Origin: an uncultured bacterium
GTDB taxonomy: Bacteria; Hydrogenedentota; Hydrogenedentia; Hydrogenedentales; JAEUWI01
Length of the DNA stretch: 22,468 nt
Direction: 5' to 3'
NCBI GenBank assembly: GCA_963977445.1
Contig: CAXBPH010000095.1
Span: 1-22,468 of the forward strand
Shown here: positions 5,488 through 20,337 of the stretch, in pieces
Numbering within the stretch: the stretch's first letter is position 1
How the letters are laid out: each line of letters begins with the position of its first letter
Program-made: the position numbers and the translations under genes
Notes under the pieces: generated by a model
Databases searched by the model: none
What the model was told of the DNA's origin: nothing
The model's input: the letters and a program-made list of their open reading frames with translations, nothing else

Positions 5488-5561
5488 GGGGAATTCCTTT
5501 AATTGGGGTAGAGTGCTCAAGAGCAAACATTGTACCGCCTGGATCCATTGCGGAGCAATGG

Positions 5562-5620
5562 GAATTTAGAATGTTGAATGGTGAATTTAGAATGTTGAAT
5601 GGTGAATTTAGAATGTTGAA
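5562..5620. repeat. Tandem 21-bp repeat (x2.8) built from GAATNNN heptamers
   Basis: GAATTTAGAATGTTGAATGGT occurs at 5562, 5583 and, partially, 5604. Confidence 0.95.
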
Positions 5621-5633
5621 AGAAAGTGCCCTT

Positions 5634-6027
5634 GGGTACAGTTACCGATTGGTCGCGACCATTTCGCCGGGGCATCGACAAGTCGCAATCGGAAACTGTC
5701 CCCGTGTCGTGGGGACAGTATCCCCCGTAAGGGTAGCGTTTTTGCACGTCAGTGGAATGGTGACTCCAACAGGGGGTGACTGTACCCGGATTGACCTGCG
5801 AGTGGGTACAGTTACCGATTGGTCGCGACCATTTTGCTGGGGCATCGACAAGCCGCAATCGGAAACTGTCCCCGTGTCGTGGGGACAGTATCCCCCGTAA
5901 GGGTAGCGTTTTTGCACGTTAGTGGAATGGTGACGTCAACAGGGGGTGACTGTACCCGAATAGATTTACCGATTGACCGCGACCCGTTCGCCGGGGCTAC
6001 GACAAGCCGCAATCGGAAACTGTCCCC
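5634..6027. repeat. REP/REPIN-like composite palindromic element: two 154-bp copies at 170-bp period plus a partial third copy
   Basis: Copies 5634-5787 and 5804-5957 differ at 6 positions; the partial copy is 5966-6027. Each full copy is bounded by GGGTACAGTTACC / GGTGACTGTACCC and has a central ACTGTCCCC-N7-GGGGACAGT hairpin. Confidence 0.9.
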
Positions 6028-11112: not shown

Positions 11113-11562
11113 CGGCTGTCGACGTAATATCCTGCGGAGCGGGGTAGGGTGCCCTGTTCGCCGGGAGCAATTTGGGGCGAATGTTACACATTCCAGGTTT
11201 TCACCGTCCGACGGATGGTCGACACGGAGAGGCATATGGTCAAGTCTCTGGACCTGTTTCGCTCTGCATGCCTGGTCGTTTAGTGACAAATAGCACTACC
11301 CACCTTCTGCCAACCGAAGCCATCACCGCTTCGTTGTATCATGGTCACGGTGCGATACCTCGCTGATGGTACCATGCTGCGGTTGCCGGTTATTGTGGCG
11401 GGGACTGGGCTGGGGTGGGCAACAGCATCCGGGGCAGTACTTCCGCTTTCCATCCCAAGTTTGTTACATTGGGGATCCGGCGGAATCGGTCCCCAGCAGC
11501 GATGTCGATACAGTATGAAGCAGAACGTCTAGACACCAACAAATACAACTCAGGATGTGCCC

Positions 11563-12264
11563 ATGCAATCGGAAGATCGCGTTATTCATTTTGGCGTCGA
11601 ACTCATACACAAGCCAACGCAGCATAAGAAAGAAGTACTTCAAAAGCTTTATTATGAATTGTCGCAAACGCGGAATGGCGGCTATGACAGCACCGATTTT
11701 ACCCGACCCATGCAGCCGCGCTTTTACTCTAAACGGGGAAAACGTTCCCAGTCGATAGCCCTTTTCCTGCCCGACCGGGTGCTTCTCGTAGAGGAGTGGG
11801 CCGACATACCCATGAGTGAATTTCTGGATCGGGTGGAGGCGGTAGCGAGTCGTGTCCTTGAGATGGAAGGTCTTGCGCCCTTTATGGCCCACACGGTCAC
11901 TATCCGCTCGACCTTTGCCCTGTCTCACTTCAGCGATGCCCGAATTTTCCTTCTGGAGGAGGTGTGTGATCAGGGGGGCAAGATCGGGCCCCACTTTCAA
12001 CGCCCCATTGCCGTGGGGGGACTGCGTTTCACCCTGCCCGAGACCGATGAATATCCCGGTAACGTTCAGCTTACGGTTGAGTCTTTTCGTCAGGCATTGA
12101 ACGAAGTCTATGTGGAAGCCAAGGGGATATTTACCCGGGAGAAGATAGCCCCTGGAGAAATTGGGAATGTGCTGGATCATGTGCGGGGAATTCGAAGTTT
12201 TATAACGGACCGCGTCTTTCCCTATTTGAACCAATATGATGTTGCGCCGGAGGTGGATGAATGA
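11563..12264 (+). CDS. Hypothetical protein, 233 aa
   Basis: Long ORF with protein-like composition. CAGGA lies 7 nt before ATG 11563. The stop overlaps the next start (ATGA at 12261-12264). Confidence 0.8.
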   Translation: MQSEDRVIHFGVELIHKPTQHKKEVLQKLYYELSQTRNGGYDSTDFTRPMQPRFYSKRGKRSQSIALFLPDRVLLVEEWADIPMSEFLDRVEAVASRVLEMEGLAPFMAHTVTIRSTFALSHFSDARIFLLEEVCDQGGKIGPHFQRPIAVGGLRFTLPETDEYPGNVQLTVESFRQALNEVYVEAKGIFTREKIAPGEIGNVLDHVRGIRSFITDRVFPYLNQYDVAPEVDE

Positions 12265-13837: not shown

Positions 13838-13867
13838 TTGACAAGATCTGCCGTCGTTTATTATAAT
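13838..13867 (+). promoter_or_regulatory. Sigma70-type promoter of tRNA-Cys
   Basis: Perfect TTGACA (13838-13843), an 18-bp spacer and perfect TATAAT (13862-13867), ending 16 nt before the tRNA. An AT-rich tract lies upstream. Confidence 0.85.
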
Positions 13868-13883: not shown

Positions 13884-13957
13884 GGCGGCATCGCCAAGTG
13901 GTAAGGCAGGGGCCTGCAAAGCCCTTATCCTCGGTTCGATTCCGAGTGCCGCCTCCA
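13884..13957 (+). tRNA. tRNA-Cys (GCA), 74 nt, CCA encoded
   Basis: Acceptor stem GGCGGCA/TGCCGCC; D arm GCC-AAGTGGTAA-GGC; anticodon arm GGGGC-CTGCAAA-GCCCT; T arm CTCGG-TTCGATT-CCGAG; U discriminator followed by CCA. Confidence 0.97.
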
Positions 13958-13969
13958 ATATAATATCGT

Positions 13970-14010
13970 ATGGCGACAAGCAATTGAGCTTGTCGCCATT
14001 TCTATTATTT
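13970..14010 (+). terminator. Intrinsic terminator after tRNA-Cys
   Basis: Perfect 12-bp stem ATGGCGACAAGC / GCTTGTCGCCAT with a 6-nt loop, followed by TTCTATTATTT. Confidence 0.85.
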
Positions 14011-14112
14011 GCGCCTTTTGCCTTCTAGGCGGCAGGTAGGCCAGTCCTCAGTCGAGACATGGGGGGTCTGAAGTTCAAGCGCGCGGCCAACGTATTTCAA
14101 CTACGCTGCACG

Positions 14113-14281
14113 GTGGCCTCTCGGACTGCTGTTACCTTTTGCCCAGCCTTTGCTGGCAGCGATGCGCAATGCTCAAACCCGGTGGCCACATATCTCCTCC
14201 CACCGTTGTCACCAGTTGCGGATTCTTCCGCAAAAAGGCAAGGTTTTATTGGTATTTGCTCCCGTAGAGTCCGGAGGCCAC
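14113..14281. repeat. Inverted-repeat-bounded 169-bp element upstream of the signalling cluster
   Basis: GTGGCCTCTCGGACT (14113-14127) pairs with AGTCCGGAGGCCAC (14268-14281), giving 14 bp with one bulge. Several internal hairpins are present. Confidence 0.55.
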
Positions 14282-14368
14282 TTGATTACCGGAAAGCATT
14301 GGCAGATAATGAAGTCGGTAGTGAATCGAGCAAAATTTTCCCGATAAAGTTTTTGAAAAGGGATTCTG

Positions 14369-15652
14369 ATGAACGGTATCTTTGGTACGTTATTCGACAC
14401 ATCGGATTTTCCCCAGCGCTGGTACTGTGGCAACTGGACGCCCTTTCACGGTTGGGTCCACGTTATCGCCGATGTCGCTATTTTTGGTGCCTATACCGCC
14501 ATCCCCCTGGTGCTCGTCTACTTTCTGTTGAAGAAGGGAGATATCAGCTTTCCAACCATTGGATGGCTTTTCAGCGTCTTTATCCTCGCATGCGGCGCGA
14601 GTCACCTCGTGGAAGCTTCTATCTTCTGGTGGCCGGCCTATCGGGTGGCCGGGGTTATGAAAGTTATCACCGCGTCGGTATCGTGGCTTACCGTGATTGC
14701 GTTAATTCGCATCGCACCACAAGCCCTTGAGTTGCCCGGTCTTGCCACATTAAACACCAGTCTCCGCACCGAGATTGAACGGCGTACCGATGTGGAAGCG
14801 GAGTTGTTGCGACACCGCGAGCTCCTGCAGGAGCAGGTTGACGCGCAGACCCATCAATTACGTGCAGCCAATGATTCACTGGAAAAAGAGGTTGCCGAAA
14901 GCAGGCGTGCGCAGATCGCCTTGGAGCAGAGTAATCAGGCGCTGGAGGATTTCGCCCATATTGCTTCCCATGATTTACAAGAGCCGCTCCGGAAAATACG
15001 GACTTTTGGTGCACGCCTTGAGAAGGCAGCAGAAGGCGCACTGAATGAGCGGGCGTTGGATGATCTGAGCCGCACCGTAGGGGCGGCGACCCGTATGCAG
15101 GCCATGATTGACGGGTTGCTCGACTATTCCCGTGTCTCTACCCAAAAGAAGCCTTTTGCGCAGGTGCGCCTGGACGACGTCATTGACGACGTATTGGAAA
15201 CCCTGGATACCCGGATCGAACAGACGAATGCCCGGATTATTCGGGAACCCTTACCCACAATTGCTGCCGATCCGCTTCAACTGAACCAGTTATTCCAAAA
15301 TCTGGTTGGCAATGCCCTGAAATTTAAAAAGCCGGAGACACGACCTGAAATTACGATATCACCAGCTCCGTCAGTGGGTGGTACGGTATGTATCCACGTT
15401 GCGGATAATGGTATTGGGATGGACCCCCGCCACGTTGCGAAATTATTCCAGCCTTTTACCCGATTGAATCCGCGGAGTGCCTTTGAGGGAAGCGGTATCG
15501 GGTTGAGTATTTGCAAAAAAATCGTTGAAAGACACCATGGCGATATCGGGGTTGAATGTGTCGAGGGCGGAGGATGCACGTTTATTGTGACGTTGCCTAC
15601 GGATGCTCGGGATGGCACGTCGTCATCGTTTGCAATGGCTGGCGAGGTGTAG
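14369..15652 (+). CDS. Sensor histidine kinase with an N-terminal ethylene-receptor-like (ETR1-type, 3-TM) domain, coiled coil, HisKA and HATPase domains, 427 aa
   Basis: IADVAIFGAYTAIP...FILACGASHL...KVITASVS matches the ETR1 ethylene-binding pattern. H-box ASHDLQEPLRKI (H201), N-box FQNLVGNALKF, G1 DNGIG, G2 GSGIGLSICKKIV. AAAAGGGA Shine-Dalgarno. Confidence 0.93.
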   Translation: MNGIFGTLFDTSDFPQRWYCGNWTPFHGWVHVIADVAIFGAYTAIPLVLVYFLLKKGDISFPTIGWLFSVFILACGASHLVEASIFWWPAYRVAGVMKVITASVSWLTVIALIRIAPQALELPGLATLNTSLRTEIERRTDVEAELLRHRELLQEQVDAQTHQLRAANDSLEKEVAESRRAQIALEQSNQALEDFAHIASHDLQEPLRKIRTFGARLEKAAEGALNERALDDLSRTVGAATRMQAMIDGLLDYSRVSTQKKPFAQVRLDDVIDDVLETLDTRIEQTNARIIREPLPTIAADPLQLNQLFQNLVGNALKFKKPETRPEITISPAPSVGGTVCIHVADNGIGMDPRHVAKLFQPFTRLNPRSAFEGSGIGLSICKKIVERHHGDIGVECVEGGGCTFIVTLPTDARDGTSSSFAMAGEV

Positions 15653-15653
15653 G

Positions 15654-16091
15654 ATGGCGAACAAAGTCAAATTCGTAATGGTGCTGGCTGAGGATGATCA
15701 GGATGATCAGTTGCTGGCAAGAGAGGCGTTGGCGGAAAGTGAATTGCCTCACGATTTGGTCACGGTAGACGATGGACAGGCGCTGATTGATTACCTTCAA
15801 AATGAGACGGAGAGTGACGAGAGCAAGCGCCCAGATCTTATTCTACTCGACCTGAATCTACCCCGTCTTGATGGTCGCCAGGTGTTGGAGATTCTCAAAG
15901 CCGATGAGGTCCTGCGACGTATTCCCGTCGTGGTACTGACAACCTCCAAAGCCGATGAAGACGTAGCGCGTTGCTATGATTTGGGTGTGGCCGGATTCAT
16001 AACGAAGCCGGTTTCTTTCGATGGGCTTGTTTCAATTCTCCAATCCATTGACCAGTACTGGTTCAAAATGGTGAAACTCCCTTCCGAGTAG
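15654..16091 (+). CDS. Single-domain response regulator, Rcp1-like, 145 aa
   Basis: LAEDDQDD, LILLDLNLPRLDG (phospho-Asp), VVVLTTS...DV..CY.LG and FITKP. ATG 15654 follows the kinase stop by 1 nt, with a GAGGTG Shine-Dalgarno. The track start at 15603 overlaps the kinase and is unlikely. Confidence 0.93.
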   Translation: MANKVKFVMVLAEDDQDDQLLAREALAESELPHDLVTVDDGQALIDYLQNETESDESKRPDLILLDLNLPRLDGRQVLEILKADEVLRRIPVVVLTTSKADEDVARCYDLGVAGFITKPVSFDGLVSILQSIDQYWFKMVKLPSE

Positions 16092-16115: not shown

Positions 16116-19100
16116 ATGTCGGTTTCAGAATCAGAAATACCTATTCGCGTGCTCCTGGTGGAGGATGACGAGGACGATTTTGTAGTTACGAGTGAATTAC
16201 TTCACGATGCAAAGACGGGCCTCTATGATATAACCTGGGCATCCTCCGCCGAAATGGGCCGCGAGATGCTGCGGGACGGACAATTCGATGTTGCAATTGT
16301 GGACTACCGTCTTGGTGCCATTGATGGGGTTGCATTTGTTCGTGAGGCCGCCGAGACGTATCCAGCGATACCTTTCATCATGTTGACTGGTCAGGACAAC
16401 TACCAGCTTGATATGGAGGCCCTGGCAGCCGGTGCGACAGACTACTTCGTCAAAGGTTCGTTTACGTCGGAAACCATCGATCGGGCGGTTCGCTACGGTT
16501 GGCGGGGCAAACGACTTGAAACACAACTGCGACGAGAACGAAATTTTGCATCAACCCTGCTCAATCACGTTGAAGCGGTTGTCATCGTCTTGGATTGCAA
16601 CGGGAAAATCCTGCGCATAAATCGGAAAGGTCTAGTCGTTACCGGACTTAGTGCGCCGCAGGCGATTGGCAGTGATTTTGTGGAATTGCTGGCCATGGCT
16701 GAAAAAAAGGCCGAAATTACCTCACTTTTTAACGACTTTGACGTTGCCCGGTTTCCCAATATGCATCGCAGTTATTGGAAAGCAGTGAATGGCACCAATC
16801 GGCTGATTGAATGGTCGAGCACGCTGGTTTCCGAAGAGCTCGGTAGCGATCCCCATATCGTGGTGACGGGCCTGGATGTTACGGAGCGGGCCCGAGACAA
16901 GGCCGAGCTTCGAAAATTGGCGCTCATCGCGAGCGAGACCGACAACACTGTAATTTTGACGGATAGCAAGGGTCTCATCGAGTGGACCAACCCAGGATTT
17001 ACGCGCCTCACGGGTTATGAGAGTGGGGAGGTGCTTGGTCAACGTCCCGGTGCGCTATTGCAAGGTCCTGCGACCGATCCGGCGACGGTGCTGCGAATTC
17101 GCGATGCGCTCGCGGAGAAGCGCGCAATTCGTGAAGAGATTTTGAACTATACGAAGGGTGGTGAGACTTACTGGACAGAAGTGCATATCCAGCCGATTTT
17201 CAATCGCAGCGGAGAGCTCGTCAAATTCTTCAGTATCAATACGGATATTACCGAAAAGAAACTACAAGACGAACGCATTCGGGAGTTGAACACGACGCTC
17301 GAAGAACGGGTACTTACCCGGACCCGTGAACTCGCCGCCACGCGAAAGTTTGTGGAGCACACCCTGGATTCCCTGCCCATTTACATCTGCGTGATTGATG
17401 CCACTGGAATGATCCTCCTGGTGAACGCCGCGTGGGAACGGTTTACTATCTCGGATCTTCTTACCAAGGGTGATCTCCATCTGGTGGGAAACCTGCTTCG
17501 TGCTCTTGAAAAGATTGGCAAGGGAGGGGACGCCACAAGTCTGGAGGCGTTTCGCCTTCTGGAGGAGGTGATTGCAGGCAGTCGGCCGACCTTCGAATTG
17601 GACTATAGTCGAAATTCGTCCGACTTGGAGGAGCATTTTAGGATACGGGCGAATCGATTTCTCGTGGACGATAACGTCCATGTCGTTGTGGCCTATGAAG
17701 ACGTTACGAGACGAAAGCAGGCCGAGATAGAGGCCGTTCGTGCAAAGCAGCAGGCGGAGGTGGCCAGTAAGGCAAAGAGCGCGTTTCTTGCCAATATGTC
17801 TCACGAAATACGGACGCCCATGAATGCGATTTTGGGATTTTCCCAGTTGTTGGAGAGTTCGAGTGAGCTGACGGGAGAGCAACTCAGTCATGTGCAGATA
17901 ATCAACCGAAGTGGCGAGCATCTCCTTTCGGTTATCAACAACATTCTGGATATGTCTAAGATTGAGGCCGGAAGTGTGACGTTGAACCTTTCGGAATTCG
18001 ATTTTCATGGGCTGCTCGAAGAGCTGGCTCGGGTGTTTCAAATGCGTACCGAATCAACCGGTATCGCATTTGAACTTGAGTGCGAGTCGAGCATTCCCAG
18101 GATAGTATTTGGCGATCAAGCCAAAATACGACAGATACTGTTTAATCTGTTGGGTAATGCCTTCAAATTTACCCAGCATGGTCGGATTATTCTGCGCGCG
18201 AGCGGAGAGGCCCGTGGGGCGACCCTGGTATGGCTCCTGATCGATGTTCAGGATACCGGATCTGGCATTGCGGCAGAGGATCTCGATCAGGTATTTGAGG
18301 CGTTTTCGCAAACGGTATCGGGGCGGAAAGTATCGGGTGGTACGGGACTAGGATTACCCATCAGCCGCCGATATGCTCAATTGATGGACGGTGACTTGAC
18401 CGTCAGGAGCAGTGAGGGCGACGGTAGTACGTTCCGTTTGATGGTGCCCGTTCGGGTGAGCAGTAGCTTAGGCATCGCTGCCGTTGAGCCGACCATTAGA
18501 CGGGTCGCTGGGCTGGCGGAAGGTACACCGACTATTGACATATTGATTGTCGATGACATGCAGAGCAACCTTGACCTGTTGCGCACCATCCTGGAGCGCG
18601 TTGGTTTCAGCGTTCGTGCCTGCAATGATGGTCGAACGGCGGTTCAGACTATTTTCGACGATCCGCCAGACATGGTATTTCTCGACATCGCTATGCCGGG
18701 AATGAACGGATACGACACGATTCGTGCCATTCGGGCAAACGAAGCGTGCAACGATATTCCGATCATTGCGGCAACCGCGGCCGTCTTTGAGGAAGAAAAG
18801 GAAAAAGTAATTGCTGCGGGGGGCGATGGATTTCTGCGAAAGCCCTTTGCAATTTCCGCAATTCTCGACGTAATTCGTGAGCAACTATCGGTGGAGTATC
18901 GGTATCAGGACGAAGAGTCGTCGATCGAGAGCCCCGTATTGGCCGCCGCGCCAAGTACGATACAGATTCCCGCAGATATCCTGTATGATTTGAAGGACGC
19001 AGCGGTCCGTTGTCACGGGGAACGGATCAATGAACTGCTGGAGTGGTTCACCGATAAGGACCCGGCTTTGGGTCACTCGCTGACAAAGTTGGCCGAAGAA

Positions 19101-19154
19101 TTTCAGTTTGATGAAATGTTGAATCTCTTAGAAAAGGTTGATGTGTTACCCTGA
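16116..19154 (+). CDS. Cytoplasmic hybrid histidine kinase REC-PAS-PAS-PAS-HisKA-HATPase-REC, 1012 aa
   Basis: N-terminal receiver (VLLVEDDEDD...AIVDYRLG) and three PAS-like segments. H-box FLANMSHEIRTPMN (H563), NLLGNAFKFT, DTGSG and GGTGLGL. C-terminal receiver (ILIVDD...FLDIAMPGMNG...FLRKP). No transmembrane segment seen. Confidence 0.93.
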   Translation: MSVSESEIPIRVLLVEDDEDDFVVTSELLHDAKTGLYDITWASSAEMGREMLRDGQFDVAIVDYRLGAIDGVAFVREAAETYPAIPFIMLTGQDNYQLDMEALAAGATDYFVKGSFTSETIDRAVRYGWRGKRLETQLRRERNFASTLLNHVEAVVIVLDCNGKILRINRKGLVVTGLSAPQAIGSDFVELLAMAEKKAEITSLFNDFDVARFPNMHRSYWKAVNGTNRLIEWSSTLVSEELGSDPHIVVTGLDVTERARDKAELRKLALIASETDNTVILTDSKGLIEWTNPGFTRLTGYESGEVLGQRPGALLQGPATDPATVLRIRDALAEKRAIREEILNYTKGGETYWTEVHIQPIFNRSGELVKFFSINTDITEKKLQDERIRELNTTLEERVLTRTRELAATRKFVEHTLDSLPIYICVIDATGMILLVNAAWERFTISDLLTKGDLHLVGNLLRALEKIGKGGDATSLEAFRLLEEVIAGSRPTFELDYSRNSSDLEEHFRIRANRFLVDDNVHVVVAYEDVTRRKQAEIEAVRAKQQAEVASKAKSAFLANMSHEIRTPMNAILGFSQLLESSSELTGEQLSHVQIINRSGEHLLSVINNILDMSKIEAGSVTLNLSEFDFHGLLEELARVFQMRTESTGIAFELECESSIPRIVFGDQAKIRQILFNLLGNAFKFTQHGRIILRASGEARGATLVWLLIDVQDTGSGIAAEDLDQVFEAFSQTVSGRKVSGGTGLGLPISRRYAQLMDGDLTVRSSEGDGSTFRLMVPVRVSSSLGIAAVEPTIRRVAGLAEGTPTIDILIVDDMQSNLDLLRTILERVGFSVRACNDGRTAVQTIFDDPPDMVFLDIAMPGMNGYDTIRAIRANEACNDIPIIAATAAVFEEEKEKVIAAGGDGFLRKPFAISAILDVIREQLSVEYRYQDEESSIESPVLAAAPSTIQIPADILYDLKDAAVRCHGERINELLEWFTDKDPALGHSLTKLAEEFQFDEMLNLLEKVDVLP

Positions 19155-19227: not shown

Positions 19228-20337
19228 ATGATAGAGAATTCGAAGAAGATAAAGATTCTGGTGGTGGATGATACGGTCGCGAATCTGAAGCTTCTCCAGG
19301 ACATGCTTCGGAAGTCCGGCTACGACCCGCGGCCTTGCCCCAACGGGCCAACGGCGCTGCGCGCGGCCGCGAGTGACATTCCTGATCTGATTCTGCTCGA
19401 CGTCAACATGCCGGAAATGGACGGCTATGAAGTCTGTGATCGATTAAAGCAGAATGAAACATTAAAGGAAGTTCCGGTTATCTTCATAAGTGCTCTGAAC
19501 GAGACGGCCGACAAACTGGAAGCCTTTCGGCGGGGGGGCGTGGATTATATTACGAAACCTTTTCAGTTTGAAGAAGTTCGTGCGCGTATTGATACCCATG
19601 TAAAATTGCGCCAGTATCAGATGGCACTCCGCGACCATAACCTGCATTTGACGGAGTTGGTAGACGAGCGCACTCGGGAAGTCATAACCGCCAAGGAAGA
19701 AGTCTCAAAGGGGCAGCTGGCTACCATTATGGCCATGTGTAAAATCGCCGAGGCCCGTGATGACGATACAGGGAAGCATATTGAACGTACCCAGCTCTAT
19801 TGTGAAGCCCTGGCCGAAAAACTTCACGAGATGTCCCGCTATACGGATACCGTGGATGAAGAGTATCTGCGAAATGTGTTTCATGCGAGCCCCCTTCATG
19901 ATATTGGTAAAGTCGCGATACCAGACGCTATCTTGAACAAGCCGGGTCGGCTCACGCCGGAAGAGTTCGATATTATGAAGACCCATGCGGTTATTGGGGC
20001 CCACAATCTTGAAGCCGTGATTGCGCGATACCCCAACAACAGTTTCATTCAGGTAGGGGTGGAAATTGCGCGGTCCCACCACGAGAAGTGGAACGGCACG
20101 GGCTATCCTGATGGCCTCGCCGGGGAAGAGATACCACTGGCGGCACGGATCATGGCGGTTGGCGACGTCTACGACGCACTTCGAAGCAAGCGTTGCTACA
20201 AGGACGCATTTTCCCATGAAAAGGCCCGTGGCATCTTGCTCGAGGAGCGGGGCGAACACTTCGATCCAGAGCTGATCGATGTTTTCCTTGACGTGGAAGC
20301 ACGCTTTGTCGCAATCCACGACGAGATGGGAGATTAG
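19228..20337 (+). CDS. Response regulator with an HD-GYP domain (RpfG-like cyclic-di-GMP phosphodiesterase), 369 aa
   Basis: Receiver (ILVVDD...LLDVNMPEMDG...ITKP), then EARDDDTGKH, LHDIGK, HHEKWNGTGYP, LAGEEIP and GDVYDAL...R.YK. Confidence 0.94.
   Translation: MIENSKKIKILVVDDTVANLKLLQDMLRKSGYDPRPCPNGPTALRAAASDIPDLILLDVNMPEMDGYEVCDRLKQNETLKEVPVIFISALNETADKLEAFRRGGVDYITKPFQFEEVRARIDTHVKLRQYQMALRDHNLHLTELVDERTREVITAKEEVSKGQLATIMAMCKIAEARDDDTGKHIERTQLYCEALAEKLHEMSRYTDTVDEEYLRNVFHASPLHDIGKVAIPDAILNKPGRLTPEEFDIMKTHAVIGAHNLEAVIARYPNNSFIQVGVEIARSHHEKWNGTGYPDGLAGEEIPLAARIMAVGDVYDALRSKRCYKDAFSHEKARGILLEERGEHFDPELIDVFLDVEARFVAIHDEMGD

Follow-up and report, generated by a model that had tools for sequence, protein, structure and literature searches.

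A predicted copper-dependent ethylene-receptor-like kinase in an uncultured Hydrogenedentota bacterium, encoded in a cassette that likely controls c-di-GMP

Introduction

What does a bacterial sensor kinase detect when it carries the very residues through which the plant receptor ETR1 binds ethylene? The question is raised by a gene on contig CAXBPH010000095.1 (assembly GCA_963977445.1) from an uncultured bacterium of the Hydrogenedentota; we refer to the whole stretch that was analysed (22,468 nucleotides, positions 1 to 22,468 of the forward strand) as the window. A first-pass annotation had described the product as a minimal ethylene-receptor-like kinase with all seven ETR1 ethylene-binding residues at identical spacing, and had proposed that it is a copper-dependent sensor of ethylene or a small alkene. 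Here we ask how well this description holds, how unusual such a protein is, and which signal it might pass to which output.

Results

An ETR1-type domain joined directly to a histidine kinase

The gene and its parts are as follows.

14369..15652, + strand: sensor histidine kinase gene, 427 aa (ETR1-type domain, coiled coil, HisKA, HATPase_c)
14396..14437, + strand: N-terminal subfamily motif, residues 10-23 (R17, W18, C20, G21, W23)
14447..14734, + strand: ETR1_N (PF25487) ethylene-binding-type domain, residues 27-122, three helices
14735..14941, + strand: continuous helical linker, residues 123-191
14942..15139, + strand: HisKA domain, residues 192-257, with the phospho-acceptor H201 at 14969-14971
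15269..15604, + strand: HATPase_c domain, residues 301-412, with N, G1 and G2 boxes intact

ETR1_N is the sole sensor match that a Pfam scan returns for this protein: it covers 96 residues on profile positions 2-97 and, at E 5e-32 and 110.5 bits against a cut-off of 27, is real rather than due to chance. The same scan finds no other sensor family and neither PAS nor GAF, so that the assignment to the ETR1 type stands with no better match to an unrelated sensor family. Hydropathy gives three membrane helices (peaks 1.8, 1.7 and 1.7), as first described, and AlphaFold2, run on a 62-sequence alignment, agrees, placing helices at residues 25-56, 62-84 and 91-120 ahead of a single helix at 123-220 (mean pLDDT 90.3). 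Pfam and the predicted long helix together uphold the minimal layout that had been proposed, in which the domain is joined to the kinase by a coiled coil without GAF or PAS. Searched against PDB sequences, residues 1-134 remain unmatched even at a limit of E 10. Foldseek, run on the complete model, is uninformative on the sensor fold because, among the matches listed, only the kinase core is covered. That core is bacteriophytochrome-like, with 38% identity to the RpBphP2 kinase. The two-component features are in place (H201, the N, G1 and G2 boxes and an adjacent response regulator gene), as in the AzoEtr1 and SynEtr1 systems.

The nearest named relatives are 81-83% identical and come from Candidatus Hydrogenedentota. 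The start codon agrees with that of two orthologues in the same genus (G065 and G066), and over codons 1-120 we count 55 synonymous and 19 non-synonymous differences from G065, and 53 and 21 from G066: the frame is under purifying selection. An overlapping 223-aa open reading frame at 14059-14730 was rejected as a shadow frame since most differences from the orthologues collect at the third codon position when read in the kinase frame (70 versus 19 and 10).

Binding residues and their counterparts in tested receptors

Counterparts of all seven ETR1 ethylene-binding residues, and K98, lie in open reading frame 14369-15652 where the first-pass annotation had put them: D35 (GAT, 14471), Y42 (TAT, 14492), I45 (ATC, 14501), P46 (CCC, 14504), I72 (ATC, 14582), C75 (TGC, 14591), H79 (CAC, 14603) and K98 (AAA, 14660). 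For the tyrosine, we take Y32 to be one of ETR1's ethylene-binding residues, matching Y42. The domain also contains S105 and P117, which correspond to ETR1 S98 and P110 by an offset of +7. It had been claimed that every position is shifted by exactly +10 relative to ETR1. We verified the offset through AzoEtr1 of Azospirillum brasilense, the Arabidopsis ETR1 sequence itself lying outside our alignment; +10 holds for the seven residues via AzoEtr1 numbering, but K98 is at +7 from ETR1 K91, and ETR1 has three extra residues between His and Lys.

The correspondence between ETR1 D25/C65/H69/K91 and AzoEtr1 D35/C75/H79/K98 is given in PMC11819568, which also reports that AzoEtr1 retains the seven residues, that its residues 1-130 bind 14C-ethylene saturably, and that D35A and C75A alleles do not complement. 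Ethylene binding by ETR1 is reported to require I35, P36 and I62, and signal transmission to require S98 and P110 (PMC6586836); a Cu/Asp/Lys model assigns roles to D25, C65, H69 and K91 (PMC10266040).

How close, then, is the window protein to these receptors? The AzoEtr1 gene of A. brasilense Sp7 lies on plasmid ABSP7_p1 (L030:3004-4581; 525 aa), with a gene for a 135-aa receiver behind it, in agreement with the published account of the AzoEtr1/AzoRR-etr1 system (PMC11819568). Aligned with its product, as the first-pass annotation had suggested, the window protein is 40% identical over 136 columns and gapless, with the same numbering, over residues 1-123: ETR1_N occupies residues 27-122 in both, D35, Y42, I45, P46, I72, C75, H79 and K98 fall at identical numbers, and in both a histidine-kinase output is followed directly by a single-domain receiver. 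AzoEtr1, however, has a PAS domain and H17-G18 where the window protein has R17-W18 and no PAS, its receiver is weakly similar to that of the window (E 6e-6), and the window cassette additionally encodes a hybrid kinase and an HD-GYP protein. The two fall into different subfamilies in the tree described below (support 100/99) and are thus not orthologues.

With Arabidopsis ETR1 the protein shares, on the published descriptions, a three-helix domain of the Cu(I)-binding type with an Asp/Cys/His/Lys core (PMC10266040, PMC6586836, PMC13012798), an N-terminal Cys and a kinase-type C-terminus; ETR1 differs in its GAF and receiver domains, in having two N-terminal Cys, and in signalling mainly via CTR1 rather than by His phosphorylation. 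SynEtr1 (Slr1212) of Synechocystis PCC 6803 and GeiEtr1/2 of Geitlerinema are described as having the same domain, the seven residues and, like the window protein, one N-terminal Cys (PMC6682694), and SynEtr1 as transferring phosphate from His to Asp on a neighbouring regulator. In contrast to the window protein, which lacks a second input domain, these proteins are reported to contain GAF, with PAS in SynEtr1 and GeiEtr2, and SynEtr1 doubles as a photoreceptor. The single N-terminal Cys of the window protein, C20, is conserved in 254 of 255 homologues and, by analogy with the single-Cys receptors of PMC6682694, is a candidate for an inter-subunit disulfide.

Seven conserved residues are the rule in a very large family

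Rarity of the complete residue set or of the minimal layout is not supported. Among clusters formed at 50% identity, 7,177 representatives match PF25487 at E <= 0.001 (707 at 1e-30), and all seven residues plus K98 are retained in 249 of 255 near homologues, a set that includes the query; among the nearest neighbours of AzoEtr1, 119 of 120 retain the seven and the Lys. To gauge the layout we used the distance from Lys to the kinase His, which was detected by pattern in 165 of the 255 homologues, the remaining 90 being excluded from this count. In 67 of the 165 this distance is at most 125 residues, too short to accommodate PAS or GAF; the same layout occurs in 46 of 105 AzoEtr1 neighbours, and Novosphingobium sp. 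ES2-1 provides a cultured source of it. The window protein joins a family already known and catalogued in Pfam, in which a close analogue has been tested.

Nearer to home, 11 of 135 Hydrogenedentota genomes, the source genome included, have the domain above cut-off, as do 6 of the 8 other genomes of the genus. The source genome encodes a second ETR1_N kinase (L001, C130:10518-12020, - strand) with a PAS domain and two receiver genes behind it, which is also of the R17-W18 type and sits on a branch apart from the window protein. Elsewhere, two ETR1_N kinase genes lie about 2 kb apart on one contig (L017 and L006; G063:C29:7257-9595), and one copy (L012, G074:C581:1019-1240) has an open frame from which helix 2, and with it Cys and His, is missing, either through natural deletion or through assembly error. 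On the conjugative plasmid p2 of Novosphingobium sp. ES2-1, the genes for a 384-aa ETR1_N kinase and a receiver adjoin a Cas9 gene (L032).

A well-separated subfamily marked by R17-W18

Across 400 domains, positions 17 and 18 read R-W in 273, H-G in 125 and neither in 2. We refer to the two types as RW and HG. A tree of 45 thinned rows, built on residues 27-122 only and hence without the motif that defines the types, places 20 RW rows and 25 HG rows at opposite ends of a branch of 0.6 changes per site (support 100/99). Mean identity is 37.5% across the split and 52-53% within groups. Note that the split is exaggerated by the sampling, which took in the closest neighbours of two queries, and that SynEtr1 and ETR1 are absent from the tree. 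On the HG side are AzoEtr1, two cyanobacterial plasmid copies, Eleftheria and one Hydrogenedentota copy (G084); the named RW members are metagenome-assembled genomes of Hydrogenedentota, Planctomycetota, Verrucomicrobiota and Myxococcota. By its sequence, the window protein belongs to the well-separated RW subfamily.

Fixed differences between the types occur at positions 17, 18, 21, 82, 85, 86, 92, 106 and 109, where the RW residues include G21, E82, I85, F86, R92, W106 and V109. Presumably V109 corresponds to the position of the ETR1 A102T mutant. We found no tested RW member in the literature on bacterial ethylene receptors (since 2019, judged by title) or on ethylene in Planctomycetes and Hydrogenedentes, where a published survey may nevertheless list RW-type proteins; nor did the literature yield a characterised receptor from the Hydrogenedentota lineage, as the first-pass annotation had supposed.

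Linker phase

Where PAS and GAF are lacking, the distance from Lys to His follows a heptad rule: it equals 7n+1 in 62 of 67 such RW proteins, and the rule holds for 31 of 33 once the set is thinned to <70% identity. In the independent HG set, 45 of 46 linkers fall into one heptad class, these proteins being close kin. Linkers phased in this manner are reported to mark a continuous coiled coil and a coupled sensor, and small changes of phase can invert the response of YF1 (PMC6798134). In the window protein, K98 and H201 are 103 residues apart, four off the commonest class (7n+5), a spacing also seen in both orthologues, in P0186 and in the one HG outlier. The 7n+5 proteins carry a segment that we take to resemble the signalling-helix motif, and a stutter of the signalling-helix type would therefore be the simplest reading of the four-residue offset.

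A four-gene cassette beside tRNA-Cys

The kinase gene opens a cassette of four genes, whose remaining members and flanking elements are listed here.

15654..16091, + strand: single-domain receiver, 145 aa, RcpA/Rcp1 type, acceptor D66
16116..19154, + strand: hybrid kinase REC-PAS-PAS-PAS-HisKA-HATPase-REC, 1012 aa (D63, H563, D857)
19228..20337, + strand: REC-HD-GYP protein, 369 aa, with HD, HHE and GYP motifs and receiver residue D58
14282..14310, + strand: weak sigma-70-like promoter candidate for the cassette, 9/12, a consensus match only
13884..13957, + strand: tRNA-Cys(GCA), just upstream of the cassette and marking its site
13838-13867: sigma-70-like promoter of tRNA-Cys, 12/12 consensus
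13970-13999: terminator hairpin of tRNA-Cys, 12-pair

The stand-alone receiver, whose gene starts one base past the kinase stop codon, is closest to RcpA/Rcp1 (E 5e-35), and the REC-HD-GYP protein is, from its motifs, a predicted c-di-GMP phosphodiesterase. The cassette as a whole likely controls c-di-GMP. For the hybrid kinase, we note that its second PAS (16947-17255, residues 278-380) gives NCBIfam matches below cut-off to PRK13557 and NifL. This PAS has what we take to be a LOV/NifL-like stretch without the photoactive Cys, and may bind flavin, adding a redox or oxygen input.

The closest parallel in layout is the BphP1/AgR/ExsG/ExsF pathway of Rhizobium NT-26, which, as described in PMC3899027, likewise comprises a BphP-type core, an Rcp1-like receiver, a receiver-first kinase and a further receiver protein, and in which the first kinase is reported to phosphorylate two receivers, the stand-alone one and that of the second kinase. 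There, however, the input is a bilin photosensor and the second kinase is of the HWE type, whereas here we find an ETR1-type domain, a PAS-containing classical HisKA hybrid and, in the last protein, an HD-GYP output. At most, the cassette would work like this pathway; it is not a member of it.

The cassette is present at this site in 3 of 9 genomes of the genus. G066 keeps all four genes after tRNA-Cys; G065 has three of them up to the contig end and a 78% match to the HD-GYP protein on another contig; matches to the receiver above 70% are confined to these two among the 8 other genomes. G064 has the same upstream genes and tRNA and no domain match, with 905 bases to the contig end. At 52.4%, the G+C content of the cassette is at the 2nd percentile of 1,698 genome windows. 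We consider an old acquisition at tRNA-Cys likely. An active mobile element was rejected because the window contains no repeat of the tRNA-Cys 3' end (att) and no integrase was found among the 13 window proteins scanned.

Three further features of the surroundings deserve mention. In G064, G065 and G066 a family-2-type glycosyltransferase gene, absent from the window, separates the tRNA from an arabinofuranosidase-like gene. The latter is directly preceded by a gene for a 235-aa protein (11557-12264, + strand) without a Pfam or NCBIfam match, which is conserved in this place at 62-82% in 8 of 8 other genomes of the genus. Finally, the translated frames of the intergenic region at ~5520-6000 repeat the same segments twice, along with short tandem units, and possibly represent a REP-like or miniature repeat element.

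Genomic context and the ligand

Does the company that these genes keep point to a ligand? The source genome contains three copper P1B ATPases over cut-off and three COX1-family genes and so, judging from its genes, can handle copper and respire with heme-copper enzymes. No nitrogenase-like family was found in a genome search whose positive control was detected, and no ACC deaminase scored above cut-off; three further genome searches, aimed at diiron monooxygenase, AMO/pMMO and reductive dehalogenase, came back blank, with their controls silent too. In the neighbourhoods of 88 RW loci, no family recurs apart from receiver-containing proteins, which are present at 31 of them; the remaining large neighbour clusters are, on inspection, shadow frames of the kinase genes. 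Of 49 loci, 10 have a receiver gene as the next downstream open reading frame and the others a mixture, many contigs being short. Genome searches and neighbour survey thus neither confirm ethylene nor name another ligand. Nor do the binding residues specify the natural ligand, since the copper site of ETR1 is reported to answer CO and isocyanides as well (PMC13012798). A role in Ca2+ permeation, as reported for plant receptors, was also considered.

Discussion

On balance, we think it probable that the window protein is a Cu(I)-dependent sensor of ethylene or a small alkene, coupled to c-di-GMP. This reading rests on the ETR1_N match, the gapless alignment to AzoEtr1, the conserved residues, the heptad-phased linkers, the kept order of the cassette and the copper genes of the source genome; against it stands the separation from AzoEtr1 by a branch of 0.6, together with the fixed differences of the RW type, the reported response of the ETR1 copper site to CO and isocyanides, and the absence of any link to ethylene metabolism in the searches above.

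How might such a sensor work? By analogy with ETR1 and AzoEtr1, the three-helix domain likely binds Cu(I) at C75 and H79 and senses ethylene or a small alkene, and the protein would form a homodimer with one Cu(I) per monomer. D35 would orient H79 and bridge to K98, and ligand binding would move helix 3, the signal passing through the coiled coil to the kinase. The same two receptors suggest that the ligand may lower kinase activity. If the BphP1/AgR/ExsG/ExsF pathway is a guide, H201 would phosphorylate two receivers, the stand-alone one of the Rcp1 type and the one at the N-terminus of the hybrid kinase; the hybrid kinase would then control the REC-HD-GYP protein, a wiring suggested by gene order and analogy. 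The predicted phosphorelay would end in c-di-GMP breakdown, with changed attachment or biofilm behaviour the likely outcome. In A. brasilense, ethylene is reported to have lowered c-di-GMP and biofilm (PMC11819568).

The same features might, however, serve a different signal. The main rival, which we regard as rather unlikely, accepts a real Cu(I) site that may bind ethylene in vitro and holds that the natural signal is CO, acetylene, an isocyanide, NO or O2. The reported action of CO and isocyanides on ETR1 (PMC13012798) would fit, as would the distinctness of the RW subfamily with its fixed substitutions, the origin of its named members in metagenome-assembled genomes of four phyla without a demonstrated plant link, and the lack of any ethylene-metabolism gene found in the genome or among recurring neighbours. 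Yet the residues for binding and output (D35, C75, H79, K98, S105 and P117) are unchanged, and a bacterium need not make ethylene to sense it: A. brasilense is reported to sense ethylene without producing it under the conditions tested, and biotic and abiotic sources of ethylene are reported in soil and water. More doubtful still is a broader proposal, that the RW branch, with at least 273 sequences, has diverged in function, keeping the Cu(I) core while answering a different gas or responding with opposite sign, the change acting through the outer motif and residues of helices 2 and 3; in the window protein, the linker stutter would determine the sign, and a single gas would act as the input that drives c-di-GMP breakdown.

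Might the metal itself, or a cysteine, be the signal, with copper availability or redox read through C75 and H79 (and C20) and any gas incidental? Plant receptors need copper for function, and C75A or D35A is reported to leave AzoEtr1 non-functional rather than merely ligand-blind (PMC11819568), so that metal occupancy can gate output. Nevertheless, we judge this distinctly improbable: no copper-resistance or transport gene lies in the cassette or recurs beside the 88 relatives, I45, P46 and I72 are conserved as strongly as the metal ligands, and the predicted output is c-di-GMP and not a metal regulon. That the domain is a relic, a mere membrane anchor for the kinase, would suit its scattered occurrence in the genus, where 3 of 9 genomes have it at this site, but is hard to credit given purifying selection on the frame, eight intact key residues and heptad-phased linkers throughout the family.

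We therefore return to a copper-dependent ethylene or small-alkene sensor as the preferred reading, and to what it would mean. The family is very large, only a handful of its bacterial members have been tested, and the question is what the others sense. With its 427 aa and direct kinase read-out, the receptor makes a convenient structural target; shorter relatives (about 360-390 aa) or versions from cultured bacteria would be equally suitable, so that this gene is not uniquely valuable. Its modest value comes from membership in the RW branch, for which we found no tested member, and from the HD-GYP output. If an RW member binds ethylene, ethylene sensing would extend to lineages without a demonstrated link to plants; if it does not, the seven-residue rule would fail to predict the ligand.
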